Source of the DNA: Thermodesulfobacteriota bacterium
GTDB lineage: Bacteria > Desulfobacterota_D > UBA1144 > Nemesobacterales > UBA2774
Direction: 5' to 3'
DNA length: 64,000 nucleotides
NCBI GenBank assembly: GCA_021604765.1
Contig: BQJP01000001.1
Location: 262,226 to 326,225, forward strand
Of this stretch, positions 11,957 through 36,772 are shown in pieces. A model generated the notes under the pieces. The model searched no databases. It was given only the letters and a program-made list of their open reading frames with translations, and was not told the DNA's origin. Positions within the stretch are counted from its first letter, which is position 1; every line of letters begins with the position of its first letter. A program made the translations under genes and the position numbers.

Positions 11957-12340
11957 TTACCACTCCTCACCAATCCATTTGATCGCTTCTTCAAGCTCGT
12001 CGTTGTGAAATACTTTTACATCCCCGGGGACTGACATTGTCTCGATTGCAAAGCCGAATATTTTCCCCGCCTGCTGGATCCAATTCACATCAGTCACAAT
12101 TGCGATCTTCTCCCAGTCTGTAATATGAGCAAGCCCGACTTTGGCATCATCCCACATAGCGCCTGCTTCAAATCTCTCAAACTCTTCCCCCAGATGATAA
12201 AGGAGACGAACCTTTTCGTGGAGCTTAAGTTTGTCTTCCACAGTGGGTATCAAAACCGTTTCGTAGTCTTCTGCGGTTACATTGCCCTTGGCAGTAAATC
12301 CCACAGCATTGTCTGGTAATCCTTCGATTGGTTCTAACAT
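11957..12340 (-). CDS. SpoIIAA/STAS-like small protein (DUF3478-like).
   Basis: The call rests on size and remembered family similarity only. Confidence 0.3.
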   Translation of the reverse strand: MLEPIEGLPDNAVGFTAKGNVTAEDYETVLIPTVEDKLKLHEKVRLLYHLGEEFERFEAGAMWDDAKVGLAHITDWEKIAIVTDVNWIQQAGKIFGFAIETMSVPGDVKVFHNDELEEAIKWIGEEW

Positions 12341-29563: not shown

Positions 29564-29717
29564 AAACGTTTTCCTCCAACTCCTAGATGCTAAAAAAAAT
29601 TTTTTAGATAAGTGTTTTGTCCACTTTCTAATATTATAACTAAAGTTAAGAATTTAGTTGTAAACAGTGAAGCTCTCTTTTATTCTTGAACCTATTACAT
29701 CTATTTGGAGGGGATTA

Positions 29718-30212
29718 ATGAAAAGTTACCTTGCGGTATTTGCATTGTTTGTAGTTCTAAGTCTAGTTCTAGTTCCTGCATCTAAATCAACCGATATTAC
29801 AGATGAGTGTGTCATAGTTGAAGGGCTAGTATTCTGTGGCTCCAAGGATTGCAGAACCACTTCAAAAGGAGAGGTTGCCTGCGGTGGCAGATCGAAAGAC
29901 TGCCGCACTACTTCAGCTGGCAACGTCGCATGCGGTGGTTTATCTAAAGACTGTCGTACAACATCCGCCGGTAATGTAGCCTGTGGCGGATTATCCAAAG
30001 ACTGCAGAACAACCTCCGCTGGTAATGTCGCGTGCGGTGGATTGTCTAAAGACTGTCGTACAACTTCAAAAGGTAACGTAGCTTGCGGTGGATTATCTAA
30101 AGAATGCCGTACTACTTCCAAGGGGAATGTAGCCTGCGGAGGGATGGCTAAAGAATGTAGAACAACATCACAGGGTAATGTAGCCTGCGGTGGTCAGTGG
30201 AACTCGAACTGA
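29718..30212 (+). CDS. Secreted Cys-rich protein built from seven tandem 17-aa repeats (SKDCRTTSAGNVACGGL). Start revised to 29718.
   Basis: Signal peptide present. The 51-bp tandem DNA repeats are read directly from the sequence. Confidence 0.55.
   Translation: MKSYLAVFALFVVLSLVLVPASKSTDITDECVIVEGLVFCGSKDCRTTSKGEVACGGRSKDCRTTSAGNVACGGLSKDCRTTSAGNVACGGLSKDCRTTSAGNVACGGLSKDCRTTSKGNVACGGLSKECRTTSKGNVACGGMAKECRTTSQGNVACGGQWNSN
29841..30197 (+). repeat. Seven tandem 51-bp in-frame coding repeats.
   Basis: The units are nearly identical at peptide level but diverged at synonymous sites. Confidence 0.8.
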
Positions 30213-30312: not shown

Positions 30313-30972
30313 ATGGATAATAACGATTTCGAGAAATATATGGAGAAGTTTGAGTCCCTTGTGCCCGAGCTTCACAATCCATGGACTGAATACAAAGAAG
30401 AGGTTTTTAAAGAAGGATTAATTTCTGTTAAAGACAAGAGGCTTATCGCAGTTTCCTGTGCCCAAATTACCGGATGCGATCATTGTATTGAAGAGCAGAC
30501 AAAGCACGCAAAGGCGGAAGGTGCAACTGATGAAGAACTGGCTGAGTCAGTTTACATCGCAATTCGTCTGGCTATGGGCCAGCCATATGCGTTTAGCAGC
30601 ATTGCGCTTGAGAACTATGATTTGATGAAAGCTAAAGAGAGCGTTTTCAAGGGTTACTTCATTAGCAAGAATATCACACCTCAAATTCAAGATTTTCATG
30701 CAGTTAGCGGAGAGAAGCATAAGAAATTTTCAGCTTTTCATGAGATTGTTTATGAAGACGGCCATCTTTCCAAAAAACTTAAAAAAGGTCTTATGGGTCT
30801 TGCCACAGCTATCTTGGCAAAATGCCCGTGGTGCATTAGAAGCTGCGTGCGTGATGGTCTTACAGAGGGTGTAGTAAAGGAAGAAATAGTAGAGGCTATC
30901 AATATTGCCATGGTGATGAACGGATGCGCTGCAGTTTCACATGCCGCAGCTACGATGAAAGCAGCCGAATAG
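30313..30972 (+). CDS. Carboxymuconolactone decarboxylase / AhpD-like protein with two tandem domains.
   Basis: CAQITGCDHCIEEQ..H and CPWCIRSC match AhpD-core Cxx(x)C..H motifs. Confidence 0.55.
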   Translation: MDNNDFEKYMEKFESLVPELHNPWTEYKEEVFKEGLISVKDKRLIAVSCAQITGCDHCIEEQTKHAKAEGATDEELAESVYIAIRLAMGQPYAFSSIALENYDLMKAKESVFKGYFISKNITPQIQDFHAVSGEKHKKFSAFHEIVYEDGHLSKKLKKGLMGLATAILAKCPWCIRSCVRDGLTEGVVKEEIVEAINIAMVMNGCAAVSHAAATMKAAE

Positions 30973-30974
30973 GG

Positions 30975-31556
30975 TCAGTTTGTAGATGGATTGCAGATCT
31001 GACAGCTTTTAGTGTCATATTCAGTGTCCATAACTATCCCATTTTTATGCTGTGAAATACATGCGCAATCCACAAACATATCTTTTATCATCTCACGCCC
31101 ACGCTGTACGCGGGATTTCAGGCCTGAGTATGAAAGGTTCATCTGGTCTGCTATATCTTTTTGTTTAAGACCTTTTATGTCAGATAGTTCAAGTGGTACT
31201 TTATATTTATCAGGGAGTCTGTTCATAAAAACTTGGAGACACCCGGAGACGCAGGCTGAGTAGATGTCATCCGATGTTTCATCGATTGATGACTCTGTTC
31301 TTTCTTCATCAAACTCTGATGTCTCGAGTCTGTTTTTCCTATAGTAATCCGTAAGTGAGTTGCGCACTATCTGGTAAATCCAGGGGGCAAGCTTCTTTTC
31401 ATCCTTTAAATCACGAAGCTTGTTGTGGATTTTGATAAAGATTTCCTGGAGCAGATCATCGGCATCGTCTTTCTGCTGAACTTTCTTTAGAAGATAACCC
31501 CTTATCTGCGAAGAGAATTCATTCCATACATCATCTACATTGTGCTTATTTTTCAT
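30975..31556 (-). CDS. ECF sigma-70 factor with a C-terminal Cys-rich extension (CorE-like).
   Basis: Region 2 (LLQEIFIKIHNKLRDL...WIYQIVRN) and region 4 (KDIADQMNLSYSGLKSRVQRGR) are recognisable. The tail reads VDCAC...CQIC. Confidence 0.7.
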   Translation of the reverse strand: MKNKHNVDDVWNEFSSQIRGYLLKKVQQKDDADDLLQEIFIKIHNKLRDLKDEKKLAPWIYQIVRNSLTDYYRKNRLETSEFDEERTESSIDETSDDIYSACVSGCLQVFMNRLPDKYKVPLELSDIKGLKQKDIADQMNLSYSGLKSRVQRGREMIKDMFVDCACISQHKNGIVMDTEYDTKSCQICNPSTN

Positions 31557-31650
31557 TTTAAAATCTTTCCTAAAAGATTAGGGCACACACTATATATTAA
31601 TCACTATATATATAATGTGCACCCATATCCATTCAATTTATCTTTTGTGA

Positions 31651-31755
31651 TTAACCGCAGCAGCATTTACAGCCTTCAGTCTCTTCGCCGCATCTGCATG
31701 GGTTGCACTCACAGTTGGTGCAATCACATTTTGGGCTCTTTTCTTTCTCGCTCAT
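31651..31755 (-). CDS. Unannotated 34-aa metallothionein-like peptide with 9 Cys.
   Basis: MSEKEKSPKCDCTNCECNPCRCGEETEGCKCCCG. GGAGGT lies 8 nt upstream of the ATG. It sits immediately upstream of the ECF sigma gene on the same strand. Confidence 0.5.
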   Translation of the reverse strand: MSEKEKSPKCDCTNCECNPCRCGEETEGCKCCCG

Positions 31756-31920
31756 GTTTAATACCTCCAAAGTTTAGTTAAGCATTTTCTGCTCTCACCT
31801 ATAAAGACGAAGCAGGGCCAAAAAAGACGCAAAATTATATTTGTTCTGATCAGCAAATTTTCTTCGTTACTAAAGTGCTATATGCTACCATTTTGTTAAT
31901 TATAGACACTGATCAATCCG

Positions 31921-32280
31921 GTGGGAGGAATTATGTATACGTTAGAACAATTAAAAATGTTTAATGATATGCCGTTTTTGGTATTTGTGAAGGACGAAGA
32001 TCTCAAATACGTTTATGGAAACAAGCAGTTTCTGGACCTTGTGGGTTATGGTTCACTCGATGAGCTTGTGTGCAAGAGCGACCACGAGATGATCTGGAGT
32101 GGTTATGCAGACACGCTTAACGAAAATGACAGAGCCGCTTTAAACAGCAATGAACCGGTTAATACTGATGAAAGCTCAGACATACCGGGTAAGGGTAGAG
32201 TCGGGGCAAGGGTATGCAAGTTTCCTACAATAGTAGACGGGAAGAAATGTCTGATGGGTGTTGCTATCTTTCACGATTAA
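31921..32280 (+). CDS. Small PAS-like domain protein; paralog of 45039..45410.
   Basis: Shares the MPFLVFVKDEDLKYVYGN motif and a C-terminal CxxG(V/F)A motif with its paralog. Confidence 0.35.
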   Translation: MGGIMYTLEQLKMFNDMPFLVFVKDEDLKYVYGNKQFLDLVGYGSLDELVCKSDHEMIWSGYADTLNENDRAALNSNEPVNTDESSDIPGKGRVGARVCKFPTIVDGKKCLMGVAIFHD

Positions 32281-35635: not shown

Positions 35636-36202
35636 ATGACTGGTCAATTAAACTGGTTTTGCGGTGGAATTGCCCTGGGATTGGTATTTGTTCTTGCGGT
35701 TTGGTTTGTTAAGCCGATAGGAGTTTCGACCCAGTTTGTCATATTTGATGGTATCGTCTGGAGTAAAATATCCCCGGGCCTGATAGTGGAAGATCCTGAT
35801 TCAAAGTCGGGATACACGAGTACAAATCCTTATCTGGATAAAAGCGGAGGTAAATATGCAAAGAATATTGCCAATCCGTTTAATTACAGTTTTATTTTTG
35901 TGATCTGCATTATATTGGGAGCTTTTATTTCAGCATTAACAAAAGGACCTAAAGCCTCAGTAGAAGACCGAATTGCGCCAGCAGTTTGGCGTAACAGGTT
36001 TGGCGGTGATCCGTCAAAACGATATCTTGCCGCATTTTTGGGTGGAGCATTAGTGCTTTTTGGAGCAAGATTAGCAGGAGGCTGCACGAGTGGGCATATG
36101 ATGAGTGGTATGATGCAGACATCTGTAAGCGGATATCTTTTTGCTGTAGCTGCCTTTGCCGTGGCAGTACCCACCGCAATTATTTTATATGGAAGAAAAT
36201 AA
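35636..36202 (+). CDS. YeeE/YedE family sulfur-compound transporter, half-size subunit.
   Basis: GARLAGGCTSG motif within a multi-TM protein. Confidence 0.55.
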   Translation: MTGQLNWFCGGIALGLVFVLAVWFVKPIGVSTQFVIFDGIVWSKISPGLIVEDPDSKSGYTSTNPYLDKSGGKYAKNIANPFNYSFIFVICIILGAFISALTKGPKASVEDRIAPAVWRNRFGGDPSKRYLAAFLGGALVLFGARLAGGCTSGHMMSGMMQTSVSGYLFAVAAFAVAVPTAIILYGRK

Positions 36203-36214
36203 GGAGAAAGCAAA

Positions 36215-36772
36215 ATGCAGATAATACTCGCAATAATTATAGGAACTTTATTCGGATTTGTGCTTCACAGGGTTGGAGCCTCAAACCCGCAGAGGATAAT
36301 AGATATGTTAAGGTTGAAAGACTTTCATTTGATGAAAGCTATTCTCTTTGGAATAGCTGTGGCAAGCTCTATACTTTTTGTAGGTATGAGCTTTGGAATT
36401 ATAGAATCATCTCACCTTTCAGTTAAGGCTAGCTATTGGGGAGTAATAATAGGTGGGCTAATTCTTGGACTTGGCTGGGCGATAGGTGCATATTGTCCCG
36501 GCACAGGAGTGGCAGCTCTTGGGGATGGGCGGAAGGATGCTATCTTCTTTGTTCTAGGTGGATTTGTTGGAGCACTAATATATATGCTTGTATTTTCGAG
36601 CGTAAAAAGTTCAGGTTTGCTCGAAAGCATTCTCGGCGGAAAATCTACTCTCGCACTTACGCAGTCATCATATCCTGCTTTAATACATACTATGCCGGGC
36701 ATAGCAGTTGCACTTGTAATTGCAATTATTTTCGGGCTTATTGCTTGGTTACTACCAAAAAGCGCCAGCTAA
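36215..36772 (+). CDS. YeeE/YedE family transporter, second half.
   Basis: GAYCPGTG motif. Adjacent to and co-oriented with the first half. Confidence 0.55.
   Translation: MQIILAIIIGTLFGFVLHRVGASNPQRIIDMLRLKDFHLMKAILFGIAVASSILFVGMSFGIIESSHLSVKASYWGVIIGGLILGLGWAIGAYCPGTGVAALGDGRKDAIFFVLGGFVGALIYMLVFSSVKSSGLLESILGGKSTLALTQSSYPALIHTMPGIAVALVIAIIFGLIAWLLPKSAS

Follow-up and report, generated by a model that had tools for sequence, protein, structure and literature searches.

Sigma factors of the ECF (extracytoplasmic function) group ECF238, which contains SigZ and CorE2, carry a Cys-rich C-terminal extension of ~20 amino acids (aa) and a linker Cys and lack an anti-sigma factor, and their regulation by metals through the Cys-rich regions was proposed (PMC7826278 and preprint supplement). 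CorE and CorE2 of Myxococcus xanthus (ECF44, now inside ECF238) consist of the sigma2 and sigma4 domains only, with a short Cys-rich C-terminal extension and linker Cys and with no anti-sigma factor, and their metal dependence was proposed or shown (PMC3107203, PMC4937300, PMC7826278). The activity of both requires the Cys-rich domain and metal (PMC3107203, PMC4937300); the metals sensed are Cu in CorE and Cd and Zn in CorE2. The CxC motif located between sigma2 and sigma4.2 is essential in CorE and CorE2 (PMC4937300), and such a linker CxC is confined to ECF44-derived subgroups (preprint supplement of PMC7826278). The second close relative, Bacillus subtilis SigZ (ECF238 subgroup 9), has C-terminal Cys and no anti-sigma factor, and sigZ was described as a monocistronic gene of unknown function that is not autoregulated (PMC4105308; preprint supplement). 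Here, we describe a locus in 64,000 nucleotides (nt) of contig BQJP01000001.1 from a Thermodesulfobacteriota bacterium (this whole stretch is called the window), in which the gene for a SigZ-type sigma factor is preceded by a mini-ORF (small open reading frame) for a 34-aa peptide with 10 Cys. Two known kinds of protein, a metallothionein-like peptide and a CorE/SigZ-type sigma factor, are combined in it, and the function proposed below is deduced from their sequences.

A conserved Cys-rich gene in front of the sigma gene

Both genes are located on the minus strand of the window, as follows:

31651..31755, minus strand: mini-ORF of 34 aa with 10 Cys, stop codon included in the coordinates, translation MSEKEKSPKCDCTNCECNPCRCGEETEGCKCCCG
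31763..31768, minus strand: Shine-Dalgarno sequence GGAGGT, 7 nt 5′ of the mini-ORF ATG
30975..31556, minus strand: ECF sigma factor of SigZ/ECF238 type, 193 aa, assigned with TIGR02959 and Pfam

The original prediction, made from the letters of the window, gave the mini-ORF at 31755..31651 on the minus strand, and its coordinates and frame were verified. The peptide is Cys-rich, as claimed; however, it contains 10 Cys and not 9. The GGAGGT sequence lies upstream, at a spacing of 7 nt, and the distance of 94 nt to the sigma gene is correct when measured from the peptide stop to the sigma ATG (31556). This is the sole ORF with 10 Cys in fewer than 40 aa across the window.

The sigma factor was used as bait to gather 80 metagenome loci, 47 of which are true relatives, and these were scanned for mini-ORFs. 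A same-strand ORF of 27–38 aa with 8–12 Cys, placed 33–455 nt 5′ of the SigZ-like sigma gene, was found in ~44 loci from metagenomes and metagenome-assembled genomes (MAGs). When the sigma factor is at least 48% identical and upstream DNA is present, nearly all loci have the Cys-rich ORF, which was detected also in two loci with a sigma factor 39–41% identical. The frame, the Shine-Dalgarno site, and the place before the sigma gene are kept across loci whose sigma factors are 39–88% identical, and GGAGG located 7 nt 5′ of the ATG is kept in nearly all Desulfobacterota/Dadabacteria-type loci. Conservation of the reading frame in homologous loci, on which the original prediction had made the gene depend, is thus seen in 34 distinct coding sequences elsewhere. 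The pooled ratio of non-synonymous to synonymous polymorphism (pN/pS) equals 0.18 (50 pairs; 34 distinct coding sequences), which indicates purifying selection that extends to residues other than Cys, to the precise spacing of the Cys, and to peptide length. For example, 7 synonymous differences and 1 non-synonymous difference separate the window mini-ORF from that of the related locus L001, and 6 synonymous and 0 non-synonymous differences separate those of L026 and L087. A chance ORF is ruled out by the frame conservation together with pN/pS, and the mini-ORF is a real, conserved, unannotated gene.

The pairing was also approached from the side of the peptide. A degenerate DNA pattern encoding M-x8-C-[DE]-C-x2-C-x-C-x2-C-x-C, which reaches members of the main clade only (9 residues ahead of the first Cys), was run against one genome per species (185,579 species). 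Eight true family members were found, all hosted by Thermodesulfobacteriota, “Deltaproteobacteria,” Candidatus Dadabacteria, or unclassified MAGs, and the sigma gene follows in each of the seven complete main-clade peptide genes. The peptide–sigma linkage is obligate in both directions.

In its composition, the peptide resembles metallothioneins in general. The 31 distinct peptides of the family are 27–38 aa long, within the low mass (<10 kDa) of metallothioneins; Cys accounts for 29.8% of residues overall (8–12 per peptide, arranged in CxC, CxxC, and CC motifs), in line with the ~30% expected for these proteins; and F, W, Y, and H occur 0 times among 1042 residues, metallothioneins being devoid of aromatic residues and usually of His as well. 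The peptides are rich in Glu and Lys. Their first Cys is found at residue 9–11, C10, C12, C15, and C20 are invariant, and four further Cys columns are conserved at ≥90%. The C-x-C-x2-C-x-C-x2-C spacing of the peptide is also found in the beta-domain of vertebrate metallothionein, and its size is close to that of fungal Cu-metallothioneins (~25 aa). SmtA (56 aa) and MymT (53 aa) both have His ligands, whereas the peptide is shorter and contains no His. The known bacterial metallothioneins are under SmtB/ArsR-type repressors and are not known to depend on a co-encoded ECF sigma factor. There is no sequence homology between the peptide and SmtA/BmtA, MymT, the fungal Cu-metallothioneins, or the vertebrate beta-domain. 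No match for the peptide was found in Pfam or NCBIfam, and a profile search of the PDB gave nothing at E ≤ 10. The eukaryotic metallothionein family PF12749 was touched by 3 of 21 members (E 0.013, not significant), and BLASTP against human MT2A gave E 0.32. A protein homology search with the peptide padded to 40 aa returned no match, phmmer returned one match among 1.84 billion representatives, and a search with the peptide profile returned five among 5.8 billion clusters, none of them named beyond “hypothetical protein.” The claim of a very short metallothionein therefore stands for the compositional definition (size, Cys, no aromatic residues) and not for homology to a described family.

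Unannotated Cys-rich mini-ORFs were noticed as well in places without a nearby SigZ-like sigma gene, namely in L097 (Spirochaetia MAG, start 209, reverse strand), L110 (Bernardetiaceae MAG, 6958), L107, and L091; an example of such an ORF is MIKPFTESACDCDNCHCETCNCEKGKCGCVDCDCSCRCAK, with AGGAGGT. Cys-rich micro-proteins may be widespread beyond the peptide family.

Sigma factor, candidate promoter, and intercistronic hairpin

The window sigma factor passes the TIGR02959 SigZ model (171.9 bits, cut-off 168.65) and stays under the cut-off of PRK09637 (190.6 against 212). Pfam finds in it Sigma70_r2 (PF04542) and r4_2 (PF08281), and on the matching Thermodesulfobacteriota MAG contig NCBI names it SigZ. 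Its C-terminus reads CAC...CQIC, and the residues conserved at 98–99% in 107 homologues are Cys106 in the linker, Cys164, Cys165 or Cys166, and Cys185-x-x-Cys188. The linker has C102-x3-C106, with C102 present in only 49% of relatives, and the linker CxC motif of the CorE clade was found neither in the window sigma factor nor in the 107 homologues. Since this motif is absent, the protein was filed under SigZ/ECF238 and not under the CorE clade. The “CorE-type” label of the original prediction thus fits the tail (CxC...CxxC) and the ECF238 group, which holds CorE2, and fails for the CorE clade proper. With CorE and CorE2 the window sigma factor shares the sigma2 and sigma4 domains as the only domains, the Cys-rich tail, the linker Cys, and the lack of an anti-sigma factor; among the neighboring CMD, PAS, Cys-repeat, and SpoIIAA-like proteins described below, no match to an anti-sigma domain was found. 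It differs from them in belonging to SigZ, the ECF24-derived part of ECF238, in a linker with CxxxC or only one Cys, and in that a conserved candidate promoter precedes the operon, whose first gene encodes the Cys-rich peptide. B. subtilis SigZ belongs to the same TIGR02959 family; however, as mentioned above, its gene is described as standing alone. In the AlphaFold model, sigma2 and sigma4 are confident, residues 78–102 of the linker and 169–180 of the tail have a predicted local distance difference test score (pLDDT) <50, and the remainder of the tail scores ~50–60, which gives no usable geometry of the Cys site. The low confidence of the modeled linker and tail fits regions that need a ligand.

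Upstream of the mini-ORF, two elements were located:

31805..31831, minus strand: candidate ECF-type promoter, with -35 TGCGTC (31831..31826), a 16-nt spacer starting with a T-run, and -10 CGTCT (31809..31805)
31781..31793, minus strand: stem-loop AGCA-GAAAA-UGCU in the 5′ untranslated region (5′-UTR), just after the predicted transcription start

The alignment of upstream regions revealed one sharply conserved motif, TTTTGCGTCTTTTTT-N10-(C)CGTCT, ending 29–89 nt 5′ of the peptide ATG across loci. Each locus with the peptide has one such motif, invariably in front of the peptide gene; in the window it is the sole copy, against a chance expectation of 0. Across the 279 kb of related loci, the strict motif was counted 49 times, and all 49 copies precede a Cys-rich mini-ORF, a sigma gene, or, in L038, arsM. 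Such a distribution would be expected of the sigma factor's own cognate promoter. TGCGTC-N16-CGTCT is expected to be the cognate promoter type of this sigma factor, which would imply autoregulation.

Three more distant SigZ loci (L038, L040, and L041) have no upstream peptide, and in them the motif is located directly 3′ of the sigma gene. In L038 (4553..5399), it precedes a bona fide arsenite methyltransferase gene (NF008823, 331.7 bits, cut-off 263), and a second, looser copy stands in front of the sigma gene. This arsM target hints that some SigZ-type sigma factors may respond to As(III). In the Bacteroidota-like loci L040 (645..1064) and L041 (4541..4917), the motif after the sigma gene precedes a 26–28-aa CC/CCC peptide distinct from that of the window, MKNVFATLPGDCCCGGCCDGGTTGCC, and also a 54-aa single-helix membrane protein with CCFPGCC...CC; in L041, a further copy is found in front of the sigma gene. 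A methyltransferase near the MAEQE-clade locus L112 was considered too and rejected, being a generic class I enzyme and not ArsM. The 5′-UTR stem-loop is kept in the minimum free energy and centroid folds of the predicted transcript, and between loci its stem varies with the pairing kept (AGCA/TGCT, GGCC/GGCT, CGGG/CCCG, and GCAGGC/GCCTGC, read by eye).

The region between the mini-ORF and the sigma gene contains the following:

31581..31624, minus strand: RNA hairpin of 17 bp, including 3 G.U pairs, with a 10-nt loop, then UAAUCUUUU and the sigma ribosome-binding site (RBS)
31565..31571, minus strand: sigma RBS AGGAAAG, the first bases of which are paired in the outer helix of the hairpin in the predicted fold

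The AT-rich palindrome noted originally between the two genes is present at 31624..31581. Its sense RNA forms an uninterrupted 17-bp helix (-26.6 kcal/mol, z -4.7), whereas the helix of the antisense RNA is interrupted (-16.6 kcal/mol). The hairpin was found in nearly all loci, 0–37 nt before the sigma ATG and 5–263 nt from the peptide stop. Over 27 loci, the anchored pairs comprise 355 Watson–Crick, 65 G.U, and 11 A.C pairs; one G.U pair of the stem is invariant, and G-C to A-U exchanges occur at two positions. RNAalifold supports 13 pairs, 3 of them with compensatory changes, and the core CACAUU/AGUGUG is conserved in sequence too. The asymmetry of G.U against A.C pairs on the sense strand led us to reject a primary function as a DNA operator, and the palindrome behaves as a sense-strand RNA hairpin. 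No match for it was found in Rfam. The scan for the terminator consensus did not flag it because its loop exceeds 8 nt; the tail 3′ of the hairpin is moderately U-rich. An internal promoter in this AT-rich region is not claimed, as sigma-70-like matches are no commoner there than in shuffled sequences. In five loci (L006, L009, L010 with two copies, L026, and L086), a repeat resembling a miniature inverted-repeat transposable element (MITE), with inverted ends agatttctc...gagaaatct, is inserted in the hairpin loop, and both conserved arms are intact, 111–381 nt apart. More MITE-like copies lie in L004 (1591–1695 and 2031–2131) and L098 (5660–5748); no copy is found within the window.

Proposed metal sensing by the peptide–sigma pair and rival readings

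We consider it reasonably probable that the two genes form a positively autoregulated operon which senses and sequesters thiophilic metals or metalloids. It is proposed that the sigma factor, having no anti-sigma factor, would become active when a thiophilic metal or metalloid occupies its five conserved Cys (one in the linker and four in the tail); this activation by metal is suggested by analogy, being taken over from the experiments on CorE and CorE2. The metallated sigma factor would direct RNA polymerase to TGCGTC-N16-CGTCT, located 51 nt upstream of the mini-ORF. The resulting transcript would carry first the 34-aa 10-Cys peptide, with its strong Shine-Dalgarno sequence, and then, if the genes are co-transcribed, the sigma factor. 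The peptide would act as a very small metallothionein, its Cys pattern suggesting that it binds metal, and would hold the inducing ion in thiolate clusters. Lowering of the free ion would switch the sigma factor off again, that is, negative feedback by buffering. The hairpin 5′ of the sigma RBS may hold sigma output below that of the peptide, whether through leaky termination, through processing, or by partly occluding the RBS. Zn/Cd, Cu(I), and As(III) are candidates for the inducing ion; As(III) is hinted at by the arsM target in L038 and by arsenic-associated relatives of the CMD domain encoded next to the sigma gene.

Several points weigh against this proposal. The window linker contains CxxxC in place of the CxC that CorE and CorE2 require, and a single linker Cys is found in half of the relatives. 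Homology of the peptide to any metallothionein family was undetected in Pfam, NCBIfam, the PDB, and BLASTP against MT2A, with a weak PF12749 signal only. Among the neighboring genes between 20 and 37 kb of the window, there is no metal transporter and no metal or arsenic gene. Efficient termination at the hairpin would leave the sigma gene out of the transcript and so abolish autoregulation. Finally, in the published analysis of ECF238 neither a conserved promoter nor autoregulation was reported, and hardly any conserved context (preprint supplement). The conserved candidate promoter described here contradicts that analysis, which apparently missed it for want of an annotation of the operon's first gene.

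The peptide might instead be a dedicated partner of the sigma factor, namely a metal-dependent anti-sigma factor, a co-factor, or a metallochaperone that passes metal to the Cys tail or strips metal from it, possibly by contact; this we think unlikely. Such a role is suggested by the pairing of the two genes in both directions, which is typical of sigma/anti-sigma pairs, by the lack of a known anti-sigma factor in ECF238, by the abundance of Cys in both proteins, and by the linker and tail left disordered in the AlphaFold model, as expected when a ligand or partner is needed. However, 27–38 aa without hydrophobic residues leave no place for helices like those of anti-sigma domains, HxxxCxxC is absent, the same sigma type and promoter appear to drive arsM without the peptide in L038, and CorE and CorE2 act without a partner. 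In the fullest form of this idea, to which we likewise give a low probability, the pair would be an obligate two-protein sensor, with a metal-gated anti-sigma factor or co-factor of ~34 residues as metal donor or acceptor, and the operon would work as an integral-feedback buffer–sensor circuit.

The next explanation involves the gene convergent with the sigma gene:

30313..30972, plus strand: two-domain CMD/AhpD-like protein with CDHC and CPWC motifs, PF02627 matched twice (E 8.6e-28)

In a module for thiol or redox stress, the Cys of the sigma factor would undergo oxidation or alkylation, with the peptide serving as a sacrificial thiol buffer together with this CxxC protein. The CMD/AhpD gene, with its two CxxC motifs, is convergent beside the sigma gene in 16 related loci, and metallothioneins are also known as thiol antioxidants (PMC11273490). 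Against this, the ECF promoter does not recur at the CMD/AhpD gene, loci lacking this gene are about as numerous as those that have it, the characterized ECF238 members respond to metals, and a metalloid is indicated by the arsM target in L038, so that we regard the redox explanation as quite improbable. The original prediction had put the AhpD-like gene downstream in a compact stress module. Being convergent on the plus strand, it is not downstream in the sigma transcript; the pairing of peptide and sigma factor holds, and the AhpD-like gene is a frequent neighbor, not a proven member of the module.

It is also conceivable, though very unlikely in our view, that the mini-ORF is a cysteine-sensing leader, in which scarcity of Cys-tRNA would make ribosomes stall at the Cys codons, altering the RNA structure and thereby the translation or transcription of the sigma gene, the peptide itself being functionless. 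A Cys-rich ORF lies directly 5′ of the regulated gene, with a hairpin abutting the RBS of the latter, and Cys-responsive leaders have a precedent in the polycysteine small ORFs of mycobacteria (bioRxiv 10.1101/834739). Those leaderless ORFs are likewise unannotated, Cys-rich, and first in the transcript, with an RNA duplex near the next RBS. The mini-ORF differs from them in having a leader and a strong Shine-Dalgarno sequence, patterned Cys rather than a homopolymer tract, a peptide under selection, a hairpin unpositioned relative to the ORF, and no gene of cysteine metabolism after it, the downstream gene being that of a sigma factor. In addition, both arms of the hairpin lie 3′ of the ORF, Cys-rich ORFs follow the sigma gene in L040 and L041, and the fold of the whole transcript shows no alternative pairing with the ORF. 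A cysteine attenuator is disfavored by the lack of such pairing, by the variable distance from the stop to the hairpin (which is fixed relative to the sigma start), and by the purifying selection on non-Cys residues, Cys spacing, and length. That the peptide is the precursor of a ribosomally made, post-translationally modified product, or binds Fe–S or another cofactor, is hardly credible: precursors of the SCIFF/ranthipeptide type are short Cys-rich ORFs like this one, but the sigma gene alone is invariant nearby, with no conserved gene for a radical-SAM (S-adenosylmethionine) enzyme, YcaO, lanthionine synthetase, protease, or exporter, the peptide lacks a leader/core architecture because its Cys begin at residue 9–11, and the precursor was rejected for want of a conserved maturase.

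Neighboring genes and significance of the locus

The best NCBIfam match of the CMD/AhpD protein is TIGR04169 (104 bits, cut-off 120), which places it outside that subfamily. Between the stop codons of this gene and the sigma gene (30972/30975) there are 2 nt and no terminator, so their transcripts should overlap, and antisense interference is possible. On the plus strand, at 29667..30212, a secreted-looking protein is encoded, with ~8 tandem 17-aa repeats SKDCRTTSxGNVACGGL, 2 Cys in each, and a DNA period of 51 bp; it has no Pfam or NCBIfam family, and its homologues stand beside sigma or CMD genes in four loci (L002, L026, L085, and L102). The gene of a 119-aa single-PAS-domain protein (31921..32280, plus strand) lies 90 nt from the peptide promoter in divergent orientation, and homologues 31–35% identical lie 5′ of the peptide gene in 7 related loci, in the orientation opposite to that in the window. 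Genes of SpoIIAA-like (STAS-fold) proteins, PF11964, were found 0.1–3.5 kb 3′ of the sigma gene in at least 12 related loci (L004, L016, L019, L024, L026, L028–L033, L087, L098, L109, and L112, in the last one twice in tandem); the window homologue, 77% identical, is located 19 kb away at 11957..12340 on the minus strand. An adjacent pair of YeeE/YedE-type sulfur-transport half-proteins (PF04143) is encoded at 35636..36772 on the plus strand, 4 kb from the locus, and is not conserved beside related loci. The promoter motif was found on none of the recurrent neighbors (CMD/AhpD, Cys-repeat, PF11964, and PAS). Since the peptide–sigma pair alone is invariant, the other neighbors were treated as possible lineage synteny.

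If the proposed sense-and-sequester operon is correct, the peptides would be a new family of bacterial metallothionein-like proteins, the shortest known in bacteria and invisible to annotation pipelines, and the first metallothionein-like protein hard-wired to an ECF sigma factor. A compact cassette of sensor plus sink could possibly be used in biosensing or bioremediation. For the sigma factors of the ECF238/SigZ type, a putative conserved target promoter and target genes are gained, by which the function of SigZ-like factors becomes directly testable. Should the reading as a two-protein sensor, which we gave a low probability, be true, it would provide the first regulon logic for the long-orphan SigZ/ECF238 factors, including B. 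subtilis SigZ, and this logic would be defence against thiophilic metals and metalloids by means of Cys-rich micro-proteins and ArsM.

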